Shown here: one piece after another, positions 12,626 through 51,500 of the stretch | Numbering within the stretch: position 1 is the stretch's first letter | Layout: each line of letters starts with the position of its first letter | Source: a virus | Lineage: Duplodnaviria; Caudoviricetes | Direction: 5' to 3' (one strand) | IMG/VR virus record: IMGVR_UViG_3300016474_000496 | Location: 1-57,497 of that record | Length of the DNA: 57,497 bases | Notes under the pieces: model-generated | Database searches by the model: none | The model's input: the letters and a program-made list of their open reading frames with translations, nothing else | What the model was told of the DNA's origin: nothing | Translations under genes and position numbers: made by a program

Positions 12626-13540
12626 TTAGACGCCGGGCGTGCCGTACATTGCTCGCCAGTCAGTGAAGCCCACATCGTAACGCTCGGTGGCTTTGTACCG
12701 CATTGTGTCGGTTTCAAAATCACCTTCCATCGTCTTTTCAAGACGACGGCGCATCAACAGCTTCATACCTTCTGGGGCGTCGGTTTGCACCCACCACGCG
12801 GTTGCGCTAGTCAAACGCGACAGAACCGCAGCGCCTTCATCGAGCAAGCCGATGGATTTTACTGGGTTGATGTCGTTGTTTGCGTTGCCTGAGCGCAAAA
12901 CGCTTTTCAACAGGACTTCAGCCTGGAAGATGTTGCCCGGAGCTACGACAAGCTGTCGCGGCACGAGGCGAATCTTTTTCCCGTTGTTGTCAACTGCTTG
13001 ACGGATCTGAATGAGCATTTGCTCGAGCGAGGTCTGGCTTAAAACTGCTGCGGTCGTAAGCAAATTGCTCGCACTACCGTTAACAATTGGATGCGAAGAG
13101 CTGTTCAGCGAAACACCGTCGCCGCCAGGGTACGAGGCGCTAAAAGCGTTGTTCAACACGTTAGCGCACAAAGTCTCTTTAGTTTCCACCAAAGATTGCG
13201 CCAGGTGCCGAGCATACACCGACCCGATGCGAATGTGGTCGCCGTCTTCGACGAGGACTTTCGTCAGCGCGAAGGCCAGACCGTACACCGAATAGACGTA
13301 ACGCTTCAGGAACAACACGCCGCCCTGCTGATAGGTTACGGGGCTGCCGTCAGGAAGCAACGGCGCAAGCCCGAAACCGTACAGAACGGGTTCTTCGTGA
13401 TAGTTACGGGGAATGCCGTCTTGCTCGCGGAAAACTCGCGACCACTCATCGGCACGCTGATCATAGACTCCATCGAAGCATTCGTTCAGGATAGGCTCAA
13501 CGATGCTCCGAAAGTCCGTACTGCGCATTGGGGCTGCCAT
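12626..13540 (-). CDS. major capsid protein (HK97 fold, Mu gpT-like)
   Basis: 304 aa with LKRYVYSVYGLAFALT, GGDGVSLNSSSHP, PRQLVVAP and DFETDTMRYKATERY..GFTDWR.MYG; RBS AAGGAGG. Confidence 0.85.
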   Translation of the reverse strand: MAAPMRSTDFRSIVEPILNECFDGVYDQRADEWSRVFREQDGIPRNYHEEPVLYGFGLAPLLPDGSPVTYQQGGVLFLKRYVYSVYGLAFALTKVLVEDGDHIRIGSVYARHLAQSLVETKETLCANVLNNAFSASYPGGDGVSLNSSSHPIVNGSASNLLTTAAVLSQTSLEQMLIQIRQAVDNNGKKIRLVPRQLVVAPGNIFQAEVLLKSVLRSGNANNDINPVKSIGLLDEGAAVLSRLTSATAWWVQTDAPEGMKLLMRRRLEKTMEGDFETDTMRYKATERYDVGFTDWRAMYGTPGV

Positions 13541-14724: not shown

Positions 14725-15726
14725 TTAGCGGGAGGTCGAGGCGGCACGTTTGCGGGCTTCCGCCGCATAGCGCTTGATCATGCTGTTGCGCTTGACGGGG
14801 TCGTCCCAAAAGCCCGCATCTTTCATGGCGCGAACTTGCTCGGGTTCAAGCATGAACTGACCCTTAGGGGAGCCGCCACTATTTGATGATTCTCGACCAG
14901 TGCTGGTTTGCATATTACGAGGCCTTGAACGCTGATTGGGCGCATTATAACCCGAATCATACCTGTGAGGCAAGTATTTTCTTGCCCGGTCATCGAGCTC
15001 ATCCCAGTAGTCTTGGCTCGCGGGGTTCCAACCTTCGGCAGTGAGCTCTTCGTCGATCTGCTTGACGATTTTCGAATCGGTGTCACGGTGTTGCGGGTCG
15101 TACCAGTCGCTGCGTTTAATCCAATCAGCCGCCATTTTTTGTACTCGCGGATCGGGCACGGTATTGGGCTGCTGTTTGGGGGCGGTGCTCGCTTTTTTCA
15201 GGTTCTTCAGAGATTCGAGCTGCTGCCTCGACTCGTACCACATTTCTTGCGCCTGCGCCAGAGCGTCGCCGTCTTGGGCGCGGGTGGCTTCGGCGATTTT
15301 GCGTTTTGCGTATTCGAGCCGCAGTTCTTGATCTTCAACTGCCCGGTCAAGTTTAGCGAGCTCGCCGGCGTGCGTTTTGCGCTCGACGATGCTTAACCGC
15401 TCCATGAGCTCTTGGTTTTGTCGCTGGAGCAGCTGCAGCCGCTGATCTTTTTCGGCGCTAGTTTTGCGGGCTAACTCGCGCTTAGCGCGGCGGCGCTCGC
15501 GTTTGGCGTTGCGGAGCGCCACGGTGTCGTCGTCAGAGTCGGCGTCCGCTGGGTCGTCGACTGCGCCGCCTTCGGCTTTTGATTCAACGGAAGCGCGGTC
15601 ATCATCATCGTCGTCTTCTTCAATTGAAGGTGGGGCGAGATCTTCAGGTAGTTCAACCGTAACGGAGCCGTCAGGTTGCTCTTTGATCTCAATGTCCGGT
15701 TCTTTTACGTCGGCAGTTGTGCTCAT
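14725..15726 (-). CDS. putative scaffolding protein
   Basis: Acidic N-terminus, long coiled coil, W..RSDWY and YWDELD motifs, basic C-terminus; lies between portal and capsid. Confidence 0.65.
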   Translation of the reverse strand: MSTTADVKEPDIEIKEQPDGSVTVELPEDLAPPSIEEDDDDDDRASVESKAEGGAVDDPADADSDDDTVALRNAKRERRRAKRELARKTSAEKDQRLQLLQRQNQELMERLSIVERKTHAGELAKLDRAVEDQELRLEYAKRKIAEATRAQDGDALAQAQEMWYESRQQLESLKNLKKASTAPKQQPNTVPDPRVQKMAADWIKRSDWYDPQHRDTDSKIVKQIDEELTAEGWNPASQDYWDELDDRARKYLPHRYDSGYNAPNQRSRPRNMQTSTGRESSNSGGSPKGQFMLEPEQVRAMKDAGFWDDPVKRNSMIKRYAAEARKRAASTSR

Positions 15727-16163
15727 AGGAATGCCTTAGTTTCGAGGGGGTTTGAGGTGATTCGTGCGATGACCTCGTGGTCATTGACGATCATGAAAAG
15801 TGAGGGGTCTTCAAGGTGATCTTCACCGGGCACTTTGACTTCCCAGCGGTCACCGCCCCACTTGGGCACACGAATAAAGTCACCCACCGCACACCACGAC
15901 CCTTCGGGCCAGGGGTTCATGGAGTCACGATGCCGAAAGGCGAGCGGCCCCACCGCGATGACTTTCGCGATTTGAGTGTTCCACTTTTCAGTTTCTTTAG
16001 TTTCCTCGACAAGCACTATGCCGGCTTTTGTGGTCTTTTTGCGGCTGCGGCGCAATTGCACCAACAACCGACCACCTAACGGCTGCGCACCAGGATCAAC
16101 GCTCGGAAAAGCCCAAGCCATCTCAGCGTCTTGCGACACTACTGGTTCAGTCATCATGTTCAT
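15723..16163 (-). CDS. groES: GroES-like co-chaperonin
   Basis: QPLGGRLLVQ, TKAGIVL mobile loop, AKVIAVGP, VGDFI, IVNDHEVIARI. Confidence 0.85.
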   Translation of the reverse strand: MNMMTEPVVSQDAEMAWAFPSVDPGAQPLGGRLLVQLRRSRKKTTKAGIVLVEETKETEKWNTQIAKVIAVGPLAFRHRDSMNPWPEGSWCAVGDFIRVPKWGGDRWEVKVPGEDHLEDPSLFMIVNDHEVIARITSNPLETKAFL

Positions 16164-16338: not shown

Positions 16339-16502
16339 TTGTTTTTACGTGCTATCGGGGCGGGGGCTCCTTTCGATGAGGGTTGAGGGGCGGTGGTGCC
16401 TTTGGACTTCAGGCTAGTGCCGTCGAGCGCCGCACCCATGGCGATGCGCTTGTGGTAGGGGACGGCTTCGTTGTCTTTGAGGTTATTGGATGGTTGGGCC
16501 AC
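16335..16502 (-). CDS. small hypothetical protein (55 aa)
   Basis: Hand-translated GTG start after AGGAG: MAQPSNNLKDNEAVPYHKRIAMGAALDG...ARKNK; fills the gap after the portal. Confidence 0.55.
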   Translation of the reverse strand: MAQPSNNLKDNEAVPYHKRIAMGAALDGTSLKSKGTTAPQPSSKGAPAPIARKNK

Positions 16503-19044
16503 GACTATCTCCTAGGTTACGTTGAGCTTCGTTTTGAAGCCGAATTGCAGTTTCCATCTGCTCGGTGCGTAGCCTCTCGTCTTGTTGCGTGAGGCGTGCG
16601 GTTTCTATGCGCTCGCGAGTGAGGTTGTTCGAAGCGCTAATGGCCACGTCAAGCTGATCGCGATCGGCGGCGCGTTGTTGCTCGGCCTGAAGCCGCGCCA
16701 CATCAAGCTGACCGCGCTGTTGAAGGTCAGCGCCTTTGAGCTGCATCTCAGCCTGGTCGCGCTGTGCGCGGCGCTGCGTTTCAGCCAAGCTGGTTTCCTT
16801 AAGCACTTGCGCTTCGGGCGGTAGCTGGGGTTGGGGCGTGAGTTTCTGCATAGCCTGAAGCAGTTGCCCCACGAGGGGGAGAATTTTACCGAACGCCTGC
16901 TCGGCATCAGATTTGACGTGTTGCGAAACGAGCGCATACACTTTGTCGATCTGCGCCGTGAGGGCTTTGTCCTCGTATTCGGCCTCGGTCACGGGGCGAC
17001 CGTCGCGCAGCTTTGTAACGTACCCTTGAGAGCGGTTCAGGTACCATAGAATCATGTGCTGCTTGACGTGCTCAAGCGCTCGAGGTAGGTAAATCGACGC
17101 CATAATGGGGTTACCGCCGAACGCCGGGTTCAGGGCGAAGTCCAAGTGCGTTTGAATATGCGCCAAGTGATCTTGATGCATATAGGCGTAGCCGTTCTGT
17201 CCCAACGCCATAGCGACGTTCTCATCGACGGCGCTGAGTTCATCTGGCGAAGGTGTGTTTTTGAGCAGCTCGTTGTAACCGGGTATTTTCAGCTGTTTCA
17301 GCAGCCGTTCTTCCACCGCTCGGCGGTCGTAGAGGTCCGGGGCTTTGTCCGCACGGGCCAAAACCGCCTGAATTTGGGCCATGCGTTGGGTTTCGCTAAA
17401 GATATGCGGATCCGAAACCGGTACAACGTCCGTATTACGCTTGAAATCATCTTCTTCGATCTCGAGGTCTGCTACAACCTCGCCTTTACGCATGTCGCTG
17501 AGGTGCCAGCGGTTCAAACGGCCAAGAACTTTCAAAAGTCGCCCTTGCGCATCGTGCAGCCGGGCGTGAATGGCGCTGAAAACCGCCGCACCCTGCTCGA
17601 TGAGCGCCTGCGTGGTGCCGACGGGGGTTTGCGCGCTCACGTCGGCGATTTTTTCTTCCGCCGTCGTGACTACGCCCTTAGTGGCCTTGTCAAGCCACCC
17701 CAAAAGCTCAAAAAGCACCGCGCTCGGGGGGTTAAAAGGCATAGGCATCGCGATTTTCTTGATATCGTCAACGCCCGGTGCACCTTCGATCTCCACAACT
17801 TGCGTGATGTCGACCTGTTGGCTCTGCCCGCTCACCTTTGCGCCCTTCAGTTTGAGCATCGCGGGGGCGTTGTTGATGTGCGCCGAATCGAGCAGGGCGC
17901 GTAACGCCCCGGTCAAGGCCGCCGAGAGCCCTCCGATGAGGTGCGGCAGCCCGATTGCGTACGCTCCGCGCCAAGGGATGAATTTATACTCAATGACCCA
18001 GTCCAATTTCGTCATCGAGTCGTCGCCGTCTTCCCAGTTGCGGTACAACCCCACCACTTCTGACTCGAGTTCGTCAATCATCAGGATGTACGGGGCCATT
18101 TCGCCCCCGCTTTCGCGGTCATCTTCGAGCTCGAGCCACGTGTAAATGTGAAAAACACGGCGTTCGCCGTCGGTGTTCTCATCCCACTTGCGGCCTTCGA
18201 TCTTGTTGTTGGCCTTTTCGGCCTTAGTTTCCTCGGGCTCCATTGTGGCGCGGATCAGGCTGATGTCGCGATACATACCGGAGCTGATCCGGCGTTTGAA
18301 TTCCCATTCGCTGATGTCGTGGATCTCGGTGGCCCGCTGCGCGGTGTAGAAGTTCGTGGCCGAAAAAGGGATCAACACCTTGTCGATGGGCAGGAACTCG
18401 GCGCAGGGGCGCTTTTGCCGGTCATCGTACCAGAGCTTCAGGTACTGCGACCCGCCCAAGGGCAGCTGCGTGAGGAGTTGCTCCTGCTCGTCGCGGAACT
18501 CTTCAATCTGCTCCGTGAGCTGCCAGTTCATCCAGTCGCGTTTACGCTCGGCACGCTGGGTTTTCTCTTCGTCGTTGGTGCCTAGGATCTTAGTCTTGAC
18601 GGGGCCGTCGGGCGGGAACAGTTCTTTTATGGCTCGGGAGGCAAAGTCCACGCAAGCTTCCGCCATCGCGGGGTGCACAACTTTGCTCGCGCCCATGAAC
18701 GTCGCGCCGCCGGGGGCGTCCTTGCCCATACCGGTGCGTTTGAGGCCTTCTTCGTACTGCTTGTCGCGGTCTTCCCGCGCCGTTTTGTCTTTCTTGATGA
18801 GTTCCAAATACCGACTGGCGAGCGTATCGAGGTCCAGCGGGTCAAACACCTCCGCCAGGTTGGCGTAGAAGTCCGGGTTATCTTCCGGGCCGCTGTCCGG
18901 CTCAAGATTGACGAGCACCGACCCATCGGGCAGCTCCTCAAGCTCGGCGTCGCCCAGCTCGAGTTCTTCCTCTTCGTACTCTACGGTCATCGGCCCAGCG
19001 GGCAGTTCGTCTTCAAGTTGGGGTTGTGGAAATTCGATAGCCAT
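16483..19044 (-). CDS. portal protein (P22-like, long C-terminal coiled coil)
   Basis: GASKVVHPAMAEACVDF, ELFPPDGPVKTKI, LPLGGSQYLK, YAIGLPHLIGGL, PVGTTQALIEQG, VVPVSDPHIFS; 853 aa. Confidence 0.85.
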   Translation of the reverse strand: MAIEFPQPQLEDELPAGPMTVEYEEEELELGDAELEELPDGSVLVNLEPDSGPEDNPDFYANLAEVFDPLDLDTLASRYLELIKKDKTAREDRDKQYEEGLKRTGMGKDAPGGATFMGASKVVHPAMAEACVDFASRAIKELFPPDGPVKTKILGTNDEEKTQRAERKRDWMNWQLTEQIEEFRDEQEQLLTQLPLGGSQYLKLWYDDRQKRPCAEFLPIDKVLIPFSATNFYTAQRATEIHDISEWEFKRRISSGMYRDISLIRATMEPEETKAEKANNKIEGRKWDENTDGERRVFHIYTWLELEDDRESGGEMAPYILMIDELESEVVGLYRNWEDGDDSMTKLDWVIEYKFIPWRGAYAIGLPHLIGGLSAALTGALRALLDSAHINNAPAMLKLKGAKVSGQSQQVDITQVVEIEGAPGVDDIKKIAMPMPFNPPSAVLFELLGWLDKATKGVVTTAEEKIADVSAQTPVGTTQALIEQGAAVFSAIHARLHDAQGRLLKVLGRLNRWHLSDMRKGEVVADLEIEEDDFKRNTDVVPVSDPHIFSETQRMAQIQAVLARADKAPDLYDRRAVEERLLKQLKIPGYNELLKNTPSPDELSAVDENVAMALGQNGYAYMHQDHLAHIQTHLDFALNPAFGGNPIMASIYLPRALEHVKQHMILWYLNRSQGYVTKLRDGRPVTEAEYEDKALTAQIDKVYALVSQHVKSDAEQAFGKILPLVGQLLQAMQKLTPQPQLPPEAQVLKETSLAETQRRAQRDQAEMQLKGADLQQRGQLDVARLQAEQQRAADRDQLDVAISASNNLTRERIETARLTQQDERLRTEQMETAIRLQNEAQRNLGDSRGPTIQ

Positions 19045-19056
19045 TTCGGGGGGTTC

Positions 19057-22002
19057 CTATCGGCGCTTATGGCCTTTGAACAACAGCTCATCAGCCATGA
19101 GCGTGGGGTTAGTTTCGATTTTGACTGCGCCGCCCTTCTTGAGCTTGTTCTTTTTCAGGAACTCCTGAGCAGGCTCGCGAATCATCTCGTAAAAGTCACG
19201 CAGCTCGGCGTTGGGAGCCACGGCGTTAGCGCCCAGGTCTAACCGCTGCCGGCCCGCGCCCTGAGCGGCTCGCCGTTCGAGCAGCAACAACGGGGCCGCC
19301 TCACCGAGGAGGTCTTGCAGGTCCACCGCACCCGACTCAAACGCCGCCGCAAACGCCGGGTCGCGCCGCACGCGGTCAAACCGACCGAGTCGGCCCGCGT
19401 TTTGAAGCTCCAACTCGGCTTTTTCAAAAAGATCTTTGTCGTAAACGCGGCGCGGCACGTCGGTCTCAAAGAAGCTGTACGCCGTGGAGGCTCGACCACC
19501 TCCGGTCGAAGGGGGTGAAGCGATGAAGGTCTTCAGCGTCCGGGGCCACGCACCCCGCTCATAGTCGGCGTAAAACGCCACGTCATCCGCGCTGGGCGAA
19601 ACCCGCAGCCCGCTGACGTCGCTCGGGTGAGTGTGGAAGTCCACAATGGCGCGACGCTGCGGGTCGCTGACCGCTCGGCTGACGTCCGCCGCACTGGGGA
19701 TGACTCGCGTGCGGTTGCCCGAGGTAACAACCTCGCCTGGGACGCCGGCTTCGGTCAACCCCACGACGGAATGCTCGTGGCCGGTGCGGTATGCGCGGCG
19801 GAGCGCCTCCCGAGCAGCAGCAGACTGCGCGGGGGCTTCGGTTCTCAACAGCTCGCGCAACGCAGCCGCTGCCCCGGCGGGGCGCTTCACGGCCCCCACT
19901 GCGCCCGCCACCGGCGGAAACGCCCCGAGGGCTTGCGCCAGTCGGAACAACTCGCTGGGGTTGGTGGGTTCGGCGGGTTTCTCGCCCATGAACCCGCGCA
20001 CCACGTCGCTCAACGCTCCGGCGGAACCCTCGCCGTAACCGGGAAGGTCTGACGCCCGACGCTTAGGGGGTTTGCCGCCCTCGTTCATGCGCACCGCACC
20101 ACCGGCGGCGTAGCCTTCTGGGCTACTAGGCGGTAGGTTTGTCCTGCCGTATTTGTCTAAAAGATCGCCGAGTTGGCGTTGCGTGACGAACTCGGGCGCG
20201 GTTACATTCGCGGCTCGAAGGTTCATACCTAGGTCGCTGTCTGGATGAATACGGACGATACCGTAAAGATCAAGATCTTTTACTTTACCCCACTTGCCGC
20301 TGTTCAAGAATTTTAGAACAGCGTTTTCGACCTTGCGGAAATATTCTGGATCGCGCTTGCCGTACTCTTGGGCGCGTTCGCTTTTGAAACTATTGCCGAC
20401 CGGTTTTAATTCGGTGATGTCGGGCGGCTCTTTAGGTTGGCTCGCCAAGACATTTTGATATTTCTTGTACACGTTTGGCGCGTGCTCTTGCAACCACTCT
20501 AAAGCGTCTTTTAATTCGGGCGGTCCGCCTGAATCTGTGCCAAAGTGTGCGTCCCAAGCAGCTTCTTGTGCTGGCGTTAGGTCGTCAATGACGGCGTCGA
20601 ATGCGCCGGTATCGTCGACAATCGATGTGATTTTCGCCTGCGCGTGTGGGCGACCTTCGGTGTCTACGAGCGCGGTCAGTCGGTTCTCGCCCGAGCCGTA
20701 GCTCTTGGCGGCCCACTCAGCTTGCGTGCACCAGCCGCCTGCTTTGCCGATGGAGCTGCACAGTTTCATACCTTTGTCAGTCACTGTCTCGGGGATGTCC
20801 ACCCAAGCACCGCCGGGTTTATCGACAAACGACAACTGAAACGAATCGTCCGCCATGCGCGGGGTTGCTTGAAGGTTTCCCAGCATCCCGGCCCTCTCAG
20901 CTTTGATAGCCTCCTCGGCTCGCCACTTGTTGATCTTGTCGACCAGCTCGACAGCCTGCGGCACCGTGACCTTCTGTAACTTCTCGGGGCTTAGCTGCAG
21001 CGCTCTCGGCAAGTCCGAGTCGGGGCTGGCGGCGTTGGTGAGCTCGTCGATGAGGTGACGGAACCCGGTATGTTCATACAGACGGCTATATGCGCTTTCC
21101 ATGTCATAGACCGGCGTCTTTGGGTCGAGCTTTTCAAGCCAAGGATTACTTTGAACGGTTGGTATGCCGGTGTCAGAGCTCTTTGTGTGTAAAAGTCTCT
21201 GAGGCTCGTCGATTGAGATTGCGCGGTCTGCCACAAACTCCCAGAACTGAGCCTCTGGGCTGACGGCCATACCCTTTTCAGGGAACCCTTGCGAGCTGCG
21301 CATTGCCTGCATGTCCCAGCCCGGCTCACCCAACTCATACATGTTGCGGTGCAGCACCCCGCGCTCAGCCAACGCCCTGACAGGGTCTTCCGGGGTGGCC
21401 ATCTCATTACGAATGTATTTGCCGAGTTTAGTGTCGAGCCAGGTGTTTATCGCGGCTTCTTCCGGACGTAGCAGGTCGTTATAAACTTCGGGGTGGTTCT
21501 TGCGAGTCCACTCGACTAAACCCACCGTTGGGTCTTTCTTGTAAGACTGCTGATACTCCTTGAACAGCTCCCGGCCTGAAGCTGCGTCAATAAGTTCGCC
21601 GGAAATTATTGGCTCGTTTTTCATCGGCTTGAGTGCCCGCTCAATCGAGCCGGCGAGCCAGTTGCCGCCCTTGGGCTTGACGACCCCCAGCGCCCCCAGC
21701 CCGCTCAACGCGGTGGCGGCCTTACCCGCAGCCTGAGCCGCCTCAGGGATGATTGCCGCCGGGGTGGGGGCGTTCATCAACGCCTGAACGGCGCGGTAGC
21801 TGCCAGTGGGGTTGGTCTCGTCGTAGGGCTTCGCGCCCACCACGGCCCGGCCCGCCTCGCCGAGATTGCGCCGCACGTTGAGCAGCGCCTGAGCCGTGGG
21901 GTCTTCAGCGCCCTCGCCGTAACCCTTCAGCTGAGACGCCCGGCGGCGGAGGCGGAGCTCTTCGAGTTCTTCGGGGGTGGGCGGCAGTAGGCTAGGCGGC
22001 AT
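19057..22002 (-). CDS. modular (polyvalent-type) protein with PcfJ-like central region and C-terminal JAB/MPN-like domain
   Basis: GGWCTQ...ALVDTEGRPHAQ (PcfJ-like); HEH...FHTHP...SPSADD (JAB-like); duplicated RRAS.L.GYGEG leader; lies between TerL and portal. Confidence 0.6.
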   Translation of the reverse strand: MPPSLLPPTPEELEELRLRRRASQLKGYGEGAEDPTAQALLNVRRNLGEAGRAVVGAKPYDETNPTGSYRAVQALMNAPTPAAIIPEAAQAAGKAATALSGLGALGVVKPKGGNWLAGSIERALKPMKNEPIISGELIDAASGRELFKEYQQSYKKDPTVGLVEWTRKNHPEVYNDLLRPEEAAINTWLDTKLGKYIRNEMATPEDPVRALAERGVLHRNMYELGEPGWDMQAMRSSQGFPEKGMAVSPEAQFWEFVADRAISIDEPQRLLHTKSSDTGIPTVQSNPWLEKLDPKTPVYDMESAYSRLYEHTGFRHLIDELTNAASPDSDLPRALQLSPEKLQKVTVPQAVELVDKINKWRAEEAIKAERAGMLGNLQATPRMADDSFQLSFVDKPGGAWVDIPETVTDKGMKLCSSIGKAGGWCTQAEWAAKSYGSGENRLTALVDTEGRPHAQAKITSIVDDTGAFDAVIDDLTPAQEAAWDAHFGTDSGGPPELKDALEWLQEHAPNVYKKYQNVLASQPKEPPDITELKPVGNSFKSERAQEYGKRDPEYFRKVENAVLKFLNSGKWGKVKDLDLYGIVRIHPDSDLGMNLRAANVTAPEFVTQRQLGDLLDKYGRTNLPPSSPEGYAAGGAVRMNEGGKPPKRRASDLPGYGEGSAGALSDVVRGFMGEKPAEPTNPSELFRLAQALGAFPPVAGAVGAVKRPAGAAAALRELLRTEAPAQSAAAREALRRAYRTGHEHSVVGLTEAGVPGEVVTSGNRTRVIPSAADVSRAVSDPQRRAIVDFHTHPSDVSGLRVSPSADDVAFYADYERGAWPRTLKTFIASPPSTGGGRASTAYSFFETDVPRRVYDKDLFEKAELELQNAGRLGRFDRVRRDPAFAAAFESGAVDLQDLLGEAAPLLLLERRAAQGAGRQRLDLGANAVAPNAELRDFYEMIREPAQEFLKKNKLKKGGAVKIETNPTLMADELLFKGHKRR

Positions 22003-23461
22003 ATGGGTTCACCCTTGGGCCGGCGTAATCCGGCGAGTCGTTGAGCGCGTCGATGTAATCCTCGGGGTCGTACTCATCACGCGGCGCGGGGTCAATGTTG
22101 AGCCAGCTCGCGTCGCGCAGGTACCGCAGCGCCTGCGAGAAGGCGTCCACAAAGTCATCGTGCGTGGCGTTGGGGAAGCTGCATATCTGCGCGATCATGC
22201 CCTCGGCCCAGTCCCGTACGTAGCCGGCCCGCACGCTTGACTCCGGGACGTAGACCCGGCCCGCACGCACGATGTTGGCCACGATGCTGAGCCGCTGAAC
22301 CTTGTCGGCGTTGCCGGGGTTGTAGGCCCGCACCGGAACGTGCGCCCGCTGAAGGTCTTGAATCAGCACGATGCCCGCCGCTTTATCTTCAACCAGCACG
22401 AGGTCGACCTTCTTGAGGTTGCGGCCCTCGCCGAACACGATTTCATACTCGTCGATGACTTTGGGTTTGAGGTCCGGGTACTGCAACCGGTCTTGCCACG
22501 CGTCAATGATCAGCACGCTCATGGGGCCGTCTTGCGGCTTAAACACCCCGAACGTAATCGACGCTGTGGGGTCGTTTTGAGTCTTCTCCGTGAAGGCGCA
22601 ATCGTAACTTTGTAAGATGAACTCTAGCTTCGGGAGCTCTTTCTCCGCCGGCCAGAGCCTGAACCAGTCCCGCTTGACGATGCCTGACTCTTCGGGGTCA
22701 ATAACCTCGGCGTAAATCTCTTGCCTGCCGAGGTTGGTGCCCTCGTAAGCGAGGATCTGCGAGCGAAAGTTGTCGCTCAGGTTGTCGACGTTAGTGTAAG
22801 TGCTGGCCGTTGTGAGCGTGACGTCCGCGCCGTCCCGGCCAATGAGGTCAACAATCAGGTCGCGGGGTTTAGGCGTTGTGGTGATGAGGAGCCGCGACTT
22901 CATGTCGGGCAACTTCAAACGCACACCGAACTGAATCTGATCCCAACTGTCCTGAAGGTACTCCCACGCCGCTAGCTCGTCGCACCACGCACCGTGGAAC
23001 TGCGGCCCCCTGAACCGCTCAGGCTCCGAGGCCGGTATGCCTTTAATCAGCGAGCCATTAGCTAGGCGTAGCTCGTGAAGAGCTTTATTGTAGTCGGTGA
23101 CGAGCGGCTGCGGTATCACGGTGAGCAGCCCCGAGTCGCCCTCGAAGCACGTGCTGCGCACGTCGCTGCTGGTCGGTGCGGCCACCAGCCACCGGGTCTT
23201 CGGGTAGCTCCACGCCCACCAGCCGATTTGCTCGGCGGCGGTGCGGGTCTTGCCCGCGCCACGGCCCGCCAACATCAACCATATTGTCCACCACTCGCCT
23301 TCGGGCAGCAGCTGATGACGATGCGCTTTCGAAAGCCACAGCGCCCGCCATGCCCAGGCGGCTTGCCGCTCGAGGGGTAGCCGCCCGAACTCCTCGCGCA
23401 GCTTTGAGTCTTGCAGCAGTTCGCGGAGCGTTGAGTCAGCCGCGCCCACTGCCGCCCTCAT
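21992..23461 (-). CDS. terL: terminase large subunit
   Basis: Walker A LAGRGAGKT, Walker B WCDE, coupling motif TTTPKP, RNase H-like QSYDCA...HDDFVDA. Confidence 0.95.
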   Translation of the reverse strand: MRAAVGAADSTLRELLQDSKLREEFGRLPLERQAAWAWRALWLSKAHRHQLLPEGEWWTIWLMLAGRGAGKTRTAAEQIGWWAWSYPKTRWLVAAPTSSDVRSTCFEGDSGLLTVIPQPLVTDYNKALHELRLANGSLIKGIPASEPERFRGPQFHGAWCDELAAWEYLQDSWDQIQFGVRLKLPDMKSRLLITTTPKPRDLIVDLIGRDGADVTLTTASTYTNVDNLSDNFRSQILAYEGTNLGRQEIYAEVIDPEESGIVKRDWFRLWPAEKELPKLEFILQSYDCAFTEKTQNDPTASITFGVFKPQDGPMSVLIIDAWQDRLQYPDLKPKVIDEYEIVFGEGRNLKKVDLVLVEDKAAGIVLIQDLQRAHVPVRAYNPGNADKVQRLSIVANIVRAGRVYVPESSVRAGYVRDWAEGMIAQICSFPNATHDDFVDAFSQALRYLRDASWLNIDPAPRDEYDPEDYIDALNDSPDYAGPRVNPYAA

Positions 23462-23909
23462 CGGGCTGACGCCGTTTGAGCTCGATGTTTTTCAGAATCT
23501 CGTCAAACACATTTACCTCAACCCGCAGCGGCCCGTCGTCCGCTCCGGCGTGCTGAATGCGGTGGGTCTCGGCCCAGCGCAGCTGCGTCTTCGACCACCA
23601 AATGGCGCTCGCCGTGTCGCCCTCAACCGCTTTAGTGAAAAGGGTCTTGCCGACTTTGCTGTTGGCGCTCGCCTTACCGAGCAGCAGTTCGCGCTCAAAG
23701 TGCTTGCGCAACGTACTCAGGTCGATTCCGTCCCGGACCAAAATCGCAATCTGATCCTGCGGCAACCCGTAGCCCGAGAGCGTCGCCACCAGCTCCCGCT
23801 CGGTCTTAGTCGGCACGAACGCCGGCCTTCCCGCACCGGGCTGCGCACCCCCCGAGCGGCGCTTCTCGGTCACTGGGGCTTTTTCTTGTTTGGGTTTTTC
23901 TGCTTTCAT
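23436..23909 (-). CDS. terS: terminase small subunit
   Basis: HTH-like LPQDQIA...DLSTLRKHFERELLLG, GDTASAIWWSKT; directly upstream of TerL. Confidence 0.75.
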   Translation of the reverse strand: MKAEKPKQEKAPVTEKRRSGGAQPGAGRPAFVPTKTERELVATLSGYGLPQDQIAILVRDGIDLSTLRKHFERELLLGKASANSKVGKTLFTKAVEGDTASAIWWSKTQLRWAETHRIQHAGADDGPLRVEVNVFDEILKNIELKRRQPDEGGSGRG

Positions 23910-35260: not shown

Positions 35261-36254
35261 TTATCGGCTGCGGGAAAACCGCCGCGAATATTTCGATAAG
35301 CTCTACGGCTTGAACTTGACCTACGGCGTGATGCCGGGGCTGGTGTACCTTTATATGCCGGAGCTGGCGCGGCGTTATGACTGGGATGCCGAGCAGCGCC
35401 TTTGGTTCGCGTTCTTGAACGGCTTGACTCAAAACCCTATCACTTCGATGAGTCTCGCGAAGCGCCTTCCGTCGGTGCCGCCGCCCGGCGCAACATTGAG
35501 CGGTTTCTCGGAATGGTTCGGAACTGAGTGGGATCGGCTTCAGTTCGACACCGATCGCCGATATCAAAAAGCGCACACCGTTGAGGCTATCCGTACCTAC
35601 GCCAATCTTGTAGCCGAGCACGGCACGCAAGCCGCCATGCTTAGTGGGAAAACTTACGCCGAGTTGTGGGCGTTGGTTCGGGGGCAGTATCATTCGTTCG
35701 GGCGGTTGTCATCGTTCTCTTACCTCGAGTACGTTTACCTGAATGGGTTTGGCGCTGACTGTGATAACTTGCTTTTCAACGACAAGTCGGGCAGCCGCTC
35801 TCACCGCAACGGTATGTTGTTCTTAACGGGCAACGACCAGTTAGTCTGGGACAAGCGGGCGGGCAACGACTTTGACGGCAGTTATTTCAATTTTGAAGGC
35901 ATGTGTACCTGGTTGAGCCGAGAAGCCGACAACATTCTTTTTGACTTTTCTGAGCAGAACCACGACACCCCCAACGTAAGCAACTTTACACTTGAGAGCA
36001 ATCTGTGCACGTTCAAGAATCACTTCTTCGGGCGGCGTTACCCCGGCGTTTACGCCGACATGGCGTGGGAGCGCATCGAGTGGGCGGACGCTCGGGGCTT
36101 GAGCGAAGTCACGGCGGTGTTCAAAGACATGCGCAGTCTGGACCTGCCTGAGTGGTTGCGCGCCGAGTGTGAGCCGCAACAGTTGTCTTTGAAAGAAAAA
36201 GCGCGTATATTTCCAACTACGGGTCAGCCGTATCGTGCTGAACACTTTTTATAA
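35247..36254 (+). CDS. amino acid:DNA transferase-like protein (aGPT-Pplase2/ADDT family, HhH-glycosylase fold)
   Basis: DYRLRENRREYF, EQRLWFAFLNG, FDTDRRY, FGRLSSFSYLEY, SHRNG, LESNLCTFK, RRYPGVYAD; adjacent to a kinase and a dUMP hydroxymethylase. Confidence 0.75.
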   Translation: MLTTDYRLRENRREYFDKLYGLNLTYGVMPGLVYLYMPELARRYDWDAEQRLWFAFLNGLTQNPITSMSLAKRLPSVPPPGATLSGFSEWFGTEWDRLQFDTDRRYQKAHTVEAIRTYANLVAEHGTQAAMLSGKTYAELWALVRGQYHSFGRLSSFSYLEYVYLNGFGADCDNLLFNDKSGSRSHRNGMLFLTGNDQLVWDKRAGNDFDGSYFNFEGMCTWLSREADNILFDFSEQNHDTPNVSNFTLESNLCTFKNHFFGRRYPGVYADMAWERIEWADARGLSEVTAVFKDMRSLDLPEWLRAECEPQQLSLKEKARIFPTTGQPYRAEHFL

Positions 36255-36276
36255 CGAAACAACTGGAAAAACTCAA

Positions 36277-36843
36277 ATGCGAAACGTCATCTTACGCGTC
36301 TCGGGTACCTTCGGCTCAGGTAAAACCACCGCTGTGCGACAGTTCTTAGCCTACGGCGCTAAAGCGCTGATGAGCGGTGAGAAAATCGCCGGCTACCGCA
36401 CGAGCGCCCCTACGTTACGCACTCCGATCTACGTCATCGGAAAGTACGATAATGTTTGCGGCGGCACTGACGCAATCAAAACTCAAGCCGAGGTGGCTCA
36501 GCGAATCTTGAAAGCGCACCCGTTGGGGCATGTGCTTTACGAAGGGGCGTTGGTTTCCGCTAGCGGGCTGGGCGGTCAAATCACTCAGGCCGTTCACCCC
36601 ACGGGTTGCGCGGTCTATGCGTTCATGAACACGCCGCTCGAGCTGTGTATCGAGCGCGTGAAGCAGCGGCGACTCACGGCCGGAAACGAAAAACCGCTTG
36701 ACCCTAAAAACCTGATTCAAAAGTTCAACGCCGTTGTGAACTGCTACCGCAACCTTCGCGCTGCCGGTTACGACGTACGGCTCATTGACTACGCTGACCC
36801 TCACCCTCAGCTGATGACTATTTTCGAGGAGTTCGAAGCATGA
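36277..36843 (+). CDS. P-loop kinase, putative 5-hmdU DNA kinase
   Basis: SGTFGSGKTT, IGKY...CGGTD, VLYEG, TPLELCIERV..RR; sits in the hypermodification cluster. Confidence 0.7.
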   Translation: MRNVILRVSGTFGSGKTTAVRQFLAYGAKALMSGEKIAGYRTSAPTLRTPIYVIGKYDNVCGGTDAIKTQAEVAQRILKAHPLGHVLYEGALVSASGLGGQITQAVHPTGCAVYAFMNTPLELCIERVKQRRLTAGNEKPLDPKNLIQKFNAVVNCYRNLRAAGYDVRLIDYADPHPQLMTIFEEFEA

Positions 36844-48552: not shown

Positions 48553-51500
48553 TTATTTGCCTTTCTTCAGGTAGTCGAGCGGGCTTTTGTGAGCCGGCGG
48601 AGGCAGATCTTTCGGGTGCTTTGAGCGAGCACGGTGCCTGATCTCATGCATCATCTTATACAATTTTTCAGTTCCGGCTTTAGTTGAGCCGTTTCCAAGG
48701 GCACTGACAACGTCCGCCGGAAACACGAACTCCCCGTCAGCAAGCCACGCCGGAATATCGTCTGATTGCCCGTCACCGGGGCCGGCCACATGCTTACCGT
48801 CACGGAAGTCTTCACGAGCGTGCCCACCTTTGGCGTACATCATTTGAATGTTCAGCGGGGATACTTTTCCGCCGGTTCTGAACATTGGAACGTAATCAGA
48901 TTCATTATAGCTTGAAGATTCTTGATCGGACAAGCCCAGAACTTCATCAATTGAGGGCTCTTGACCATAGGCATAATAGGGCATAGCACCACGCTCCGTT
49001 AAAACATTGGCTAGTTCGGGTTGTATCTGTTTAAGCAGGTCTTGCTGCTCGTTGGCTTGCTGAAGCGCTTGAAATTCGGCAAGTGGGTCAACATAAGCAC
49101 CGCGCTCTTTAGACTTCAAAAACTGCGGACCTAACCAATCAACCGCAGCCGCCGCACCCGCCATCGCGGGCATCATGATAGCAGAACTGCTGCCCGATTG
49201 AGAAGTCTTTGGTTTTGTTTCTTTCGGCGTTTCAGGCTTGACTTCTGGTTTAACAGGCTCAAGAGGCACAACGATATCGACTTTCGGAGGGTCGCCAACG
49301 TCAAGATCATCAAAAACAGTTTCCTGACCTTCAGGGTCCGTAAAAGTACACCTGGTCTCTCCGCCAGGCTTCCACTCTACAGTCACTTTGGTGTTTGTAG
49401 TTGTATCCGTAACAACCTGCGTCGTGACGTTTGTGGTAGGGTCAACTGTAACGTCTGTTGTGCGAGTGCCATCAACTGTCGTTTGAGTGGTCACACCTGT
49501 GCTTGTATCGCTTGTAACCGTAGTGGTCGTGCTACCAACGGTCGTTACTTGCGAAGTGACGTTGTTATTAGTCGTAGTGGTCGTTGCCGTATTAGTTGTG
49601 CTGTTAACTGTAGTCTGGCTCGTTACGTTTGTCGTCACATCGGTTGCGGTTGTGGATGTGACGTTGTTGTTTGTTGTGCTATTTGCCGTGATGTTTGAGT
49701 TTGCATTTGCGGCCGCCGCGATAGCCGTGTTAGTGTCTGTGCCAGCAGCAATCGCAGCCGTAATCGATGATGCTGTAGCAACCGAGGCGTTAGCCCCTGC
49801 ATCGGTGGCTGCGGTCACAGCGGAGCTAACAGCAGTACTTGCGTCAACGCCGCTTGCGATTGCTGTTGATACGGCCGTGCTCGTTGAGCCTGCGACAACC
49901 GCTGTCGCATTTGCACCATTTTGCGTAGCCGTCGAGACGGCTGCGGTTACTGAGGATGCAATAACAGTCGAGGCGTCAGCACCGCTTTCAATTCCGGTCT
50001 TGACTGAAGATCCAACGGTCGATGAGACCGTCACCGAAGCATTAACACCGTTATTGAGCGATGCGGTAACGGAGTCTGCAACAATCGTGCTGACGGCTGT
50101 TGAGGTGTCCGCGCCGCTACTTAGTGCGGTCGAAAGACCCGTATCAATTGACGCAGTGATAACGGCTGACATGTCACCGCCAGACTTGGCGGCTGCGTCA
50201 ATTACGGTTGAAACCGCTGCGCCAGGGGCGAGACCATTATTGATTGCAGCCGTAACAGAACCCGATGAGGCTTGGGTTATGTCGCCAGTCTGAGCGAGCG
50301 TGTTATTGAATGAGGCTTGAACGCCTGAGCCAATCGACGTTGATGCGGCCTGATCGAGCGTATCAAGCTTTGTGCCTTGCATGGACCCTGCCGTAACGCC
50401 ACCATACAAAGCACCGCCTGTCATGTTAGTGAGCGCATTTGCAGCATCAATAGGTCTACCCAACGCCAAATCAATCGACCCGGCAATACTGCCTTCCTCG
50501 AGAACTTCCTGTGCTGACTCTTTCAGCGTGGTCTTGCCAACTTGAGATACGCCACTTGCCGCCTCATCAGCCTGGCTGCCAAAGACCTTGCCTGCCACCT
50601 TGCCTAAGCCAGCAGCACCGCCTGCAAGGGCTACGGTGACGCCAGCAGCTGTACCGGCAGCTTTCTGGGCGGCCAAGTGCGCATCCTCCTTTGAAGCGCC
50701 TTTGGCAATCTGTGACTCATATTCTGTGTTGTAAGCAGCGCCACCATTTTCTAAGGCCGAGGCAACGGTCTCTTTGACAAGGAAGCTGCCGGGGAACTTA
50801 ACTGTTGCAAGTTGCAATACTTCTTCAACAACCTCACTACCAACAGTAGCGCCAAATGCTTTTGGATTCTTAAAAGCCGTTGATACAAGATCGCCAACAT
50901 TAGTTGCAAACTCTTTAATTCCAGAGGAGTCGCCAACTTTTTGGATAGCCGCATTGATGTCCTTCTTTCCCTGCGTGATGTCAGCGCCTTCTGCTGCAGT
51001 AGCGGCAGCAGCAATTTGATTGGCCTTATCAAGAACTGTCCTGCCCGCATCTGTAAAACCTAGTGCGCTTAATACGCCAGCGATGGAGTTAGCCCCGAAG
51101 CTTGCTACGCCTTGCGCAGCAACACTGCCAAGCACTGAGTCAACCCTGGGCTTTTCCATTGTGACCGGGCCTGTGGTCGGTGGAAGGTCCTTGCCAGCAC
51201 TATTGACTGATGCTGGCGTAATGAGGGTTCCTGACTTGCCTTCACTGATTAGCGCATTAACGGCATTGACATACTTGGCGTAATCCGCATCACTTGTACC
51301 GCCGCCAGCCTGAATAAAGGCTGCACGGTTATGCATACCGTTGGGTGCGACATACGGGACTTCAGTTGATGGCTTGCTTGCTGCACCTGATAAGTCAGGT
51401 CTTTCTGCTGCCGTAGCGGTGCTATAAGTTTTGCCTTGCCAAGTAAACGTTGCATCAGCGCCAAGCTTTTCACGCGCTAAGGCGTAGGCCTCATTGAAAT

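Follow-up and report, generated by a model that had tools for sequence, protein, structure and literature searches.

A polyvalent phage protein with exchangeable payload modules bounded by conserved Gly-Gly adaptors at the terL-portal locus

The virus record IMGVR_UViG_3300016474_000496 (Duplodnaviria; Caudoviricetes) carries, between terL and the portal gene, a gene for a protein of 981 amino acids that we call P0001 (19057..22002, minus strand). The window analysed here is the full record of 57,497 bases, with a CheckV completeness of 100%. We show that P0001 has the architecture of a polyvalent protein. Conserved adaptors, modelled as disordered, carry a strongly selected short motif built around two glycines (GG motif), and we show, as judged from identity profiles of close relatives, that payload modules have been exchanged with breakpoints at these adaptors, the allele of the first module (the core) included. 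The terL-portal locus itself is a fixed, hypervariable slot. The best explanation overall, to which we assign a probability of roughly 0.6, is a beads-on-a-string polyvalent protein with exchangeable payloads, whose GG tags would dock the cargo into the procapsid. A first-pass annotation of the window had proposed a swappable effector-cassette system; swapping of payloads at conserved adaptors was indeed found between near-isogenic phages, and the proposal as a whole is partly supported. In the following, P-numbers denote family proteins and L-numbers IMG/VR viral loci.

Results

Architecture of P0001

AlphaFold2 models built on alignments of P0001 relatives predict two confidently folded modules flanked by three floppy segments of low confidence, all encoded on the minus strand. 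The chain begins with leader 1 (residues 1-106; 21685..22002), which contains the basic patch RRRAS, a GYGEG motif, ETNPTG followed by a helix, and an Ala/Gly-rich arm, and is modelled as disordered. Module 1, the core (residues 107-620; 20143..21684), has a per-residue confidence (pLDDT) mostly above 90 and is closed by GG tag 1 (residues 630-643, GYAAGGAVRMNEGG; 20074..20115), which is conserved in relatives. It is followed by leader 2 (residues 644-708; 19879..20073), a paralogue of leader 1 that contains KRRASDLPGYGEG and, further on, EPTNPSELFRLAQAL, and serves as the adaptor ahead of module 2, the JAB domain (residues 709-953; 19144..19878; pLDDT about 85-90). GG tag 2 and the C-terminal tail (residues 954-981, LKKGGAVKIETNPTLMADELLFKGHKRR; 19060..19143) close the chain and are conserved behind differing payloads in relatives. 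The pLDDT is mostly below 50 for residues 1-105 and 624-645, and below 50 for residues 620-708 and 956-981, which covers both GG tags and leader 2.

The two leaders are homologous, in line with the common core that the first-pass annotation had noted in them. The leader motif reads RRRASQLKGYGEG at residues 19-31 and KRRASDLPGYGEG at residues 647-659, and a BLASTP alignment of residues 19-96 with residues 647-719, with composition correction off, gives 28 identities in 78 positions (36%; E 3e-9). When leader 1 was compared by phmmer with the 72 open reading frames (ORFs) of the window, P0001 was the sole match, and the second copy had an independent E-value of 1.3e-5. By these alignments the leader repeat exceeds chance. 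The shared 14-nt string CCCTCGCCGTAACC has exactly two copies in the window (20027-20040 and 21911-21924), also in agreement with the annotation. It corresponds to the G-Y-G-E-G codons of both leaders and therefore reflects coding homology, nothing further. A TNP[TS] motif is found at residues 63, 680 and 964. The cassettes close with YAAGGAV (residues 631-637) and LKKGGAV (residues 954-960), again as annotated. Residues G634, G635 and V637 do not vary among 32 diverse relatives that are 33-77% identical overall, and are at least 90% conserved in 66.

The second cassette had also been described as visibly richer in GC. This is true in comparison with the core (0.556; junction 0.703, JAB 0.663, window 0.546), but leader 1 is equally rich (0.714), and the GC content at third codon positions of the JAB segment (0.749) lies between that of portal (0.705) and that of terL (0.798). 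A foreign origin of cassette 2 is thus unsupported.

GG motif and leader across the family

A full HMMER pass retrieved 1440 cluster representatives at E<=1e-3, 518 of them at E<=1e-30, and full-length relatives with 60-85% identity to P0001 come from independent sources. Family proteins have lengths of about 270-2100 amino acids, with the core at the N-terminus, in the middle or at the C-terminus. The core is present in 280 of 291 family proteins, a set that was gathered by similarity to P0001.

A hidden Markov model (HMM) of the YDP-type tail misses the TNPT-type tail of the P0001 clade, and general counts of the GG motif were therefore made by regular expression. The pattern [FYWMLIV][ASGKRTEQ]xGGx[VIL] occurs 389 times in 167 non-redundant proteins, against 31.1+-5.3 in shuffled sequences, which is a 12-fold enrichment, and the unbiased context logo of the motif reads G-[YF]-A-x-G-G-x-V. 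A strict GG motif lies at most 110 amino acids past the end of the core in 93 of 99 proteins, the last 60 amino acids contain a GG motif in 134 of 167 proteins, and the number of motifs rises with protein length (Spearman 0.63). Every module closes with a GG motif. At chain ends the GG tag leads into a [DN]P turn with an amphipathic helix behind it, and the tags often stand in tandem, 10-30 amino acids apart. The P0001 clade ends with ETNPTLMADELLF, other clades with YDPxEIDxI, often in 2-3 tandem copies. Internal junctions have the form [FY]AxGGAV[RH]Mx[ED]GG, behind which come a basic patch and a leader. Thus, the adaptors, disordered according to the models, carry a conserved short motif that is under strong selection.

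Among the 46 non-redundant ORFs found in the terL-portal gaps of L001-L080, the motif glycines are encoded by GGC or GGT in 164 of 172 cases; the motif is therefore selected as a peptide and not as a ribosome-binding (Shine-Dalgarno) site. An internal ribosome-binding site for a start at M639 is ruled out likewise, the Gly-Gly codons being GGC/GGT and not GGAGG, and further by the unit GGxV.Mx[ED]GG, which also lies inside the N-terminus of separately encoded ORFs. GGA or GGG is used at the two motif glycines in 8 of 172 cases, compared with about 27% for Gly codons overall in these ORFs, a scarcity that may represent avoidance of sequences resembling a ribosome-binding site.

An HMM of the GYGEG-type leader matches 63 of the 291 family proteins, twice in 15 of them, and always directly ahead of a module. 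A leader profile had been suggested in the annotation as a check, and the leader was found fused to varied payloads: at least six are preceded by it, namely the core, JAB, RadC (P0051), DUF6884 (L031), an unnamed module (P0013, P0044, L009, P0054 and P0088) and a different payload in P0372. The leader motifs (basic patch, L.GY..G and TPTG.aF) are recognisable across clades. A module encoded by an ORF of its own retains its GG tail. Stand-alone JAB ORFs have this tail but no leader, and the leader therefore behaves as an inter-module adaptor and N-terminal arm of the core rather than as a signal needed for each payload. Of the proposed leader and GG tag per cassette, the closing tag holds for every module; the leader is absent from stand-alone JAB.

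Payload exchange between related phages

Identity to P0001 was computed in bins of 30 amino acids. In L095, leader 1 is 90-96% identical to P0001, the core 13-53% (except for two bins of 76% and 96%), the junction 90%, payload 2 96-100% and the tail 85%, so that residues 631-981 show 85-100% identity throughout. L102 has a leader 1 of 86-93%, a core of low identity, a junction of 70-93%, a payload 2 of 13-46% and a tail of 85%, and in L091 low identity in leader 1 and core is followed by a junction of 100%, a payload 2 of 96-100% (identity being high from about residue 601) and a tail of 85%. P0004 has a leader 1 of 93-100% and a core of 86-100% up to about residue 570, then a junction of low identity and a payload 2 of 3-36%, and a tail of 100%. 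The same pattern is seen at the DNA level in L095: leader 1 is 93.0% identical over 329 nt and the junction 97.8% over 231 nt, the best local alignment of the core being 70.7% over 515 nt. P0372 is 75% identical to residues 634-706 of P0001, which include the end of GG tag 1, and carries a different payload behind. The tail of P0001 is 73-100% identical behind differing payloads in P0004, P0013, P0018, P0054, L030, L036 and P0372. In eight close relatives terL is 83-91% and portal 90-97% identical, the core only 40-66%; among distant phages the flanks are about 30-35% identical and the core 40-46%.

Two relatives lack most or all of the core. P0373, known from one contig of 58,017 nt, has an in-frame deletion of residues ~30-635 and is 97% identical to P0001 over the rest. 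Its joint LKGYG|AVRM shows microhomology of a Gly codon only and is not a join from leader repeat to leader repeat. P0372, found in 2 contigs, keeps only a stub of the core. No core-deleted form was present in the 11 best-matching of 15 extra IMG/VR loci, of which 9 encode full-length proteins (923-1280 amino acids) and 2 are cut off within the gene by a contig edge.

The terL-portal slot

A relative of P0001 is encoded in 400 of 459 candidate stretches from IMG/VR, and 80 loci were kept. Both flanks are present in 55 of these, and in all 55 the order is terL-gene-portal on one strand; in 24 of the remaining loci one flank is missing and in L023 both, and several of these loci end near the gene at a contig edge. 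The gap between terL and portal measures 2201-7417 nt and contains 1-3 substantial ORFs, the largest of 657-2408 amino acids. The 46 non-redundant gap ORFs contain PcfJ (16), ART-PolyVal (4), DUF6973 (3), DUF6884 (1), LPD23 (1) and DUF4214 (1), and the order of modules within the gap (ART-PolyVal, DUF6973, DUF6884, LPD23, DUF4214, RadC, JAB) varies among loci. In 30 scanned homologues the accessory Pfam domains besides PcfJ are ART-PolyVal, RadC, InPase, DUF6973, DUF7178 and DUF4214. A fixed domain order in homologues, which would have spoken against the proposed cassette system, was looked for, and the architecture was found not to be fixed. In GenBank (50,697 phage records) the sole match is DSL-LC04, a metagenome-assembled phage.

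In the window the 981-residue ORF indeed sits between terL and portal, as annotated. The upstream flank is terL (21992..23461, minus strand; Pfam Terminase_6N E 1.3e-21, domains Terminase_6N/6C), whose stop is overlapped by 11 nt by the P0001 ORF, and the downstream flank is the gene for a portal protein of 853 amino acids (16483..19044, minus strand; phrog_1216 E 1.1e-16), which starts 12 nt past the end of the ORF.

The core module

The first domain had been called PcfJ-like. The core of P0001 alone has no match to PF14284 (PcfJ) even at E<=10, with a Pfam gathering cut-off of 25 bits, and the label does not hold for P0001 itself. It holds through its relatives: 6 of 32 aligned relatives pass the cut-off, over ~50 of the 147 profile positions (about 75-125). 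We therefore refer to the constant core of the family as PcfJ-like via relatives. No tblastn match was found among 72,556 plasmids, and the core had no Foldseek match in the PDB at E<=1e-3. Within it, residues ~380-590 (20233..20865, minus strand) form a sub-domain with a GNAT-like fold in VIA-align, with a helical bundle inserted at residues 463-525. The best match is Hat1 (7xay_A; Z 8.0, root mean square deviation 3.0, 109 aligned residues), and GNAT-type acetyltransferases make up most of the 50 matches listed in the wide search (Z 5.3-8.0). No acetyl-CoA motif was seen by eye in the sub-domain, and an ESM Atlas search gave sub-threshold PcfJ and GNAT leads only. We treat the GNAT-like assignment of this predicted sub-domain as a lead only.

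Compared with P0002, residues 211-330 and 571-630 of the core form patches of 23-63% identity, although P0002 is ~85% identical overall. These patches suggest exchange of sub-modules within the core.

The JAB module

The description of the second domain as JAB-like is borne out by fold and motif. Module 2 is predicted to be a JAB/MPN+ (JAMM) metalloenzyme domain with an intact JAMM motif, E...H-x-H...S-x-x-D, in which E743, H790, H792, S804 and D807 are invariant among 15 aligned sequences. A Foldseek search with the model gave 7 PDB chains at E<=1e-3, all of them BRCC36-type MPN+ subunits (5cw4_A, E 3e-5). In VIA-align the model matched BubCD (9ea4; rmsd 3.9, 134 aligned residues) with a Z of 8.9, which barely exceeds the typical background of 7-8 of this aligner, followed by BRCC36 (7.6), JAMM1 (7.1), Cap3 (6.8) and RadC (6.2). 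The Prok-JAB family of Pfam stays below threshold on module 2 (E 0.13; 12.5 bits against a cut-off of 25), RadC does not match, and a profile from the cassette-2 alignment had no match in the PDB at E<=1.

JAB occurs in 13 of 80 loci and in 31 of 280 core-bearing proteins; among these 31 it precedes the core in 8 and follows it in the remainder. Such a distribution rules out JAB as a processing enzyme for the whole family.

GG motifs in other virion-module proteins

The first-pass annotation described the GG tag in P0001. The motif is not private to this protein and occurs in three other proteins of the phage. The most conspicuous is P0247 (11250..12116, minus strand), a basic low-complexity protein of 288 amino acids encoded directly after the capsid and cement-like genes. 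It is rich in Gly, Lys, Met and Pro, has no family match and consists largely of repeated xxGGxV, with about 12 loose copies. Six copies are strict, compared with a mean of 0.12 in 2000 shuffles of its own sequence, none of which (0/2000) reaches 6. The copies include LKKGGSV, FKEGGVI, YAKGGGV, FKKGGAL, YATGGLV and FKKGGGV besides looser ones. The orthologue in the closest relative retains 7 motifs, and more distant relatives have at most 1-2 small motif-bearing ORFs.

The second protein, P0250 (14725..15726, minus strand), has one KAEGGAVDDP motif near residue 51, with a weak HMM match at 51-57. Its N-terminus is acidic and its charged middle, rich in Arg, Lys, Glu and Gln, looks like a coiled coil by eye; from position and composition we infer a scaffold role. 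The third is a virion-module protein of 1654 amino acids with two GG motifs near its C-terminus, FRTGGKV and YAKGGHA (48802..48882, minus strand). Its C-terminal region (48553-49152, minus strand) has DDIPAWLADGEFVFPADVVSALGNGSTKAG after the two GG motifs, a stretch that appears to resemble a conserved terminal motif of internal or ejection proteins.

Several ideas on how the motif might act were followed. Searches of the head module with PHROGs, Pfam (E<=0.1) and NCBIfam recognised no prohead protease, which is no proof of absence. A 63-residue ORF of DSL-LC04 labelled 'type III secretion system' raised the idea of NPTH-type autocleavage, for which neither this ORF nor the small ORFs of the window gave Pfam support. 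The notion of self-cleavage at the conserved [DN]-P bond that follows GGxV is bare speculation. A likeness of GGxV to the mobile loop of GroES was dropped as too loose, the GroES-like protein of this phage having KAGIVL. Complex prediction of the major capsid protein (MCP; alignment A5) with tail residues 935-981 scored 0.00 in both runs and says nothing either way.

The head operon

On the minus strand the head operon runs in the order terS, terL, P0001 gene, portal, two small ORFs, GroES-like gene, scaffold-like gene (P0250), two ORFs of ~190 amino acids and MCP, with terS at 23436-23909, the GroES-like co-chaperonin gene at 15723-16163 (Cpn10 E 2.9e-7) and the MCP gene at 12626-13540, all on the minus strand. 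A GroES-like gene is also present in DSL-LC04, and the copy in the window has the mobile-loop-like KAGIVL. The MCP has more than 7,000 relatives at E<=1e-10, the best 120 of which are all at least 89% identical. These relatives represent an extremely abundant, conserved group of uncultured phages, in sharp contrast to the variable P0001 gene. A second terS-like match lies at 36235-36843 (plus strand; phrog_800 E 3.1e-19) in the replication module, far from the terS beside terL.

Discussion

The organisation of P0001 suggests how such a protein might operate. Folded payload modules, here a PcfJ-like/GNAT-like core and a JAMM-type JAB enzyme, are joined and capped by conserved adaptors, modelled as disordered, like beads on a string, each adaptor combining a module-closing GG tag, often doubled, with a basic, Gly-rich leader ahead of the next module. 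The gene would be expressed together with the head genes, and the protein would be taken into the procapsid and exit with the DNA. In this process the GG tags would dock to a conserved head component irrespective of their position in the chain, and the flexibility of the adaptors would let the modules thread out singly. We read the JAB module as an accessory effector of isopeptidase type that would be delivered to the host. Ubiquitin-like or CBASS-type conjugation defences are possible targets, an idea suggested only by the structures it resembles. One may tentatively go further and see in GG tag plus leader a general 'address and joint' grammar of a very abundant group of uncultured phages. 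Any protein bearing G-[YF]-A-x-G-G-x-V would then enter the procapsid by docking on a conserved head component, the same adaptors would act as joints for homologous recombination through which new enzymes could be added to the virion cargo, and in JAB-bearing phages the packaged JAMM isopeptidase may also cut the Gly-Gly tags, in the manner of a deubiquitinase, and so free the cassettes after ejection; we would place only a small wager on this extension.

Several observations weigh against a docked and delivered effector. P0001 itself has no match in Pfam, PHROG or NCBIfam, so that the family labels lean on relatives and predicted folds. What the JAB module does can only be guessed from its fold, and the best structural score of this module is, as said above, close to background. 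Presence of the core in nearly all members of the family set suits an essential structural role no less than an effector role. Conservation of the tail is confounded by linkage to the highly conserved portal gene 12 nt downstream, and adaptor conservation could stem from recent recombination alone, not from function. P0247 is present in 1 of 5 related genomes searched, the closest only, and motif use outside the P0001 gene is patchy. Finally, the P0001 family is known here from genes alone, and its match DSL-LC04 is metagenome-assembled according to the main text of PMC10611076.

The GG motifs might instead be proteolytic sites, at or next to which a head-maturation protease, or in JAB-bearing phages JAB itself, would cut, freeing payloads and degrading the GG-rich internal protein. 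T4 gp21 processes scaffold, internal proteins and Alt, and the spread of the motif over a scaffold-like protein, a basic protein with multiple sites and the virion-module protein of 1654 residues resembles a set of prohead protease substrates. The motif also stands at every module boundary, and the JAB/MPN+ enzymes of closest fold are isopeptidases by the titles of the matched structures, which we take to cut after a C-terminal Gly-Gly or Gly. However, the head module has no protease recognised by Pfam, PHROGs or NCBIfam, and JAB is restricted to 13 of 80 loci and 31 of 280 core-bearing proteins while the motif is family-wide. Cuts at tandem tags 10-30 residues apart, or at the three N-terminal ones of DSL-LC04, would shed tiny peptides only, and separately encoded modules still hold a tag. 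We prefer docking over cleavage because the tags are position-independent, often tandem at chain ends and kept by separate modules, and because no protease was recognised; cleavage seems doubtful to us, though worth keeping in view. Another account, which we find unlikely, takes the adaptors as mere flexible linkers without a targeting or docking role, conserved only because related phages have recently recombined. Such linkers would be disordered, as the adaptors are in the models, high DNA identity at the joints is the expected trace of recent homologous exchange, and stand-alone JAB ORFs manage without a leader. Yet G634, G635 and V637 are invariant across relatives of only 33-77% identity, the motif is enriched 12-fold, and it turns up again in unrelated proteins encoded by the phage as well as in distant clades where the surrounding sequence differs. 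Invariance, enrichment and recurrence therefore point to purifying selection on the short motif and not to mere ancestry, and leader motifs too can be recognised across clades.

An effector role of the payloads must also be weighed against the view that P0001 mainly serves the virion as an essential structural or ejection (pilot) protein, with a functional core and optional modules as decoration. The near-universal core in the similarity-gathered set would fit, as would the fixed place of the core gene in the head operon, the higher conservation of the core than of terL and portal between distant phages, and the presence of further large internal-protein genes in this phage. What makes this view improbable is that P0373 lacks residues ~30-635 in frame and P0372 keeps a core stub, in genomes known from contigs alone (one contig for P0373). 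Core alleles are moreover swapped between near-identical phages, which is more typical of arms-race genes, and the accessory repertoire (ART-PolyVal, JAB, RadC, InPase) is enzymatic. P0001 might, in the end, not be packaged at all and act late in the producing cell, for example as an assembly factor or cytoplasmic anti-defence enzyme. The GroES-like gene shows that non-structural helpers are encoded in the same module, but the reading frame of P0001 overlaps or abuts those of terL and portal on either side, its C-terminal tags are common to virion-module proteins, and the family resembles polyvalent proteins, whose packaging has been inferred (PMC5512222) and observed in one other family (10.64898/2026.04.10.717836). 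We regard a protein that stays outside the capsid as quite improbable.

Polyvalent proteins were defined by Iyer, Burroughs, Anand, de Souza and Aravind in 2017, and capsid packaging was inferred for the phage-encoded ones (PMC5512222). The more recent preprint (10.64898/2026.04.10.717836) reports a polyvalent protein of 2811 amino acids from a different family in phi24B virions by proteomics. The annotation had called P0001 akin to this class, and rightly so: relatives carry ART-PolyVal and LPD23, domains named for polyvalent proteins, as well as RadC/JAB and InPase, while P0001 itself has only the JAB fold. P0001 combines unrelated domains in one polypeptide, with two folded modules here and up to three or more in relatives, is encoded beside virion genes by phages of the portal-terminase type, and belongs to a family with varying domain order. 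In contrast to the usual phage anchor MuF, the anchor is a PcfJ-like/GNAT-like core, and a MuF/SPP1 gp7 domain was not detected in P0001 with Pfam or PHROG. The gene lies upstream of portal in a fixed terL-portal slot, and GG tag and leader adaptors delimit every module of the family and coincide with the breakpoints of exchange.

Polymorphic toxins such as CdiA and Rhs have a conserved demarcation motif ahead of a variable C-terminal domain. The likeness to them that had been suggested extends to this logic of a conserved border motif, with adaptors of 85-100% identity around payloads of 13-50%, and is a likeness of logic, not homology. It does not extend further: an immunity gene is lacking, since the next gene is portal, 12 nt downstream, P0001 has no recognised domain for secretion or trafficking, the payloads are not recognisable toxins, and the family has several cassettes with adaptors on both sides, the 'constant' part itself being exchanged. 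Polymorphic toxins are also mentioned in PMC5512222.

Short peptides that target proteins to capsids or shells offer another comparison. Examples are the T4 capsid targeting sequence, the C-terminal tail of the HK97 protease and the cargo-loading peptides of encapsulins. By analogy, the GG tags would be short terminal peptides in disordered regions, common to several internal proteins and portable between cargoes. They differ in sequence from these targeting peptides and occur also internally and often in tandem, and their docking is putative. With JAB/MPN+ isopeptidases (BRCC36, Rpn11 homologues, BubCD, Cap3) module 2 has in common the predicted fold and the complete E...HxH...S..D motif. It is only 10-18% identical to them, stays below the Prok-JAB threshold and is fused into a protein of the phage head operon. 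Its loop from HxH to SxxD has 11 residues, compared with about 7 in the usual JAB/MPN+ domain.

A described counterpart is the 'PcfJ-like protein' of DSL-LC04 (OR003939.1; proposed 'Dishuiviridae'; main text of PMC10611076), which lies in the order terL-PcfJ-like-portal-GroES-like-MCP and has GG motifs. It is a single-module protein of 825 amino acids, with 34.5% identity over 20% of the P0001 query, and carries its three GG tags ahead of the module, at the N-terminus, not behind it. The main text of PMC10611076 does not discuss this gene and has 0 occurrences of 'PcfJ'; the text of PMC5512222 has 0 occurrences of 'PcfJ' and of 'linker'. In the literature searched we found no description of the adaptor motifs, and 'PcfJ-like' in one unrelated paper. 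New here are a PcfJ-like/GNAT-like anchor in the terL-portal slot, an explicit adaptor grammar, near-isogenic phages that differ by adaptor-bounded cassettes, and a GG motif common to other virion-module proteins.

Among the weapons of a phage, polyvalent proteins are regarded as the earliest to reach the inside of a cell. To our knowledge, the mechanism by which they are loaded into capsids and by which their domain sets diversify is not known. The locus described here provides a concrete grammar, with a fixed slot, motif-bounded payloads and natural near-isogenic variants that differ in a single cassette, a core-deleted form among them. If the tags were cleavage sites, they would reveal a Gly-Gly-directed maturation system; we know of none in tailed phages, though no search for one was made. 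Should the tags be loading signals, they would account for the choice of cargo in a hugely abundant group of phages and would give a handle for placing chosen proteins in phage heads. Related phages swap payloads at the adaptors, which suggests a plug-and-play equipping of virions with different accessory enzymes.

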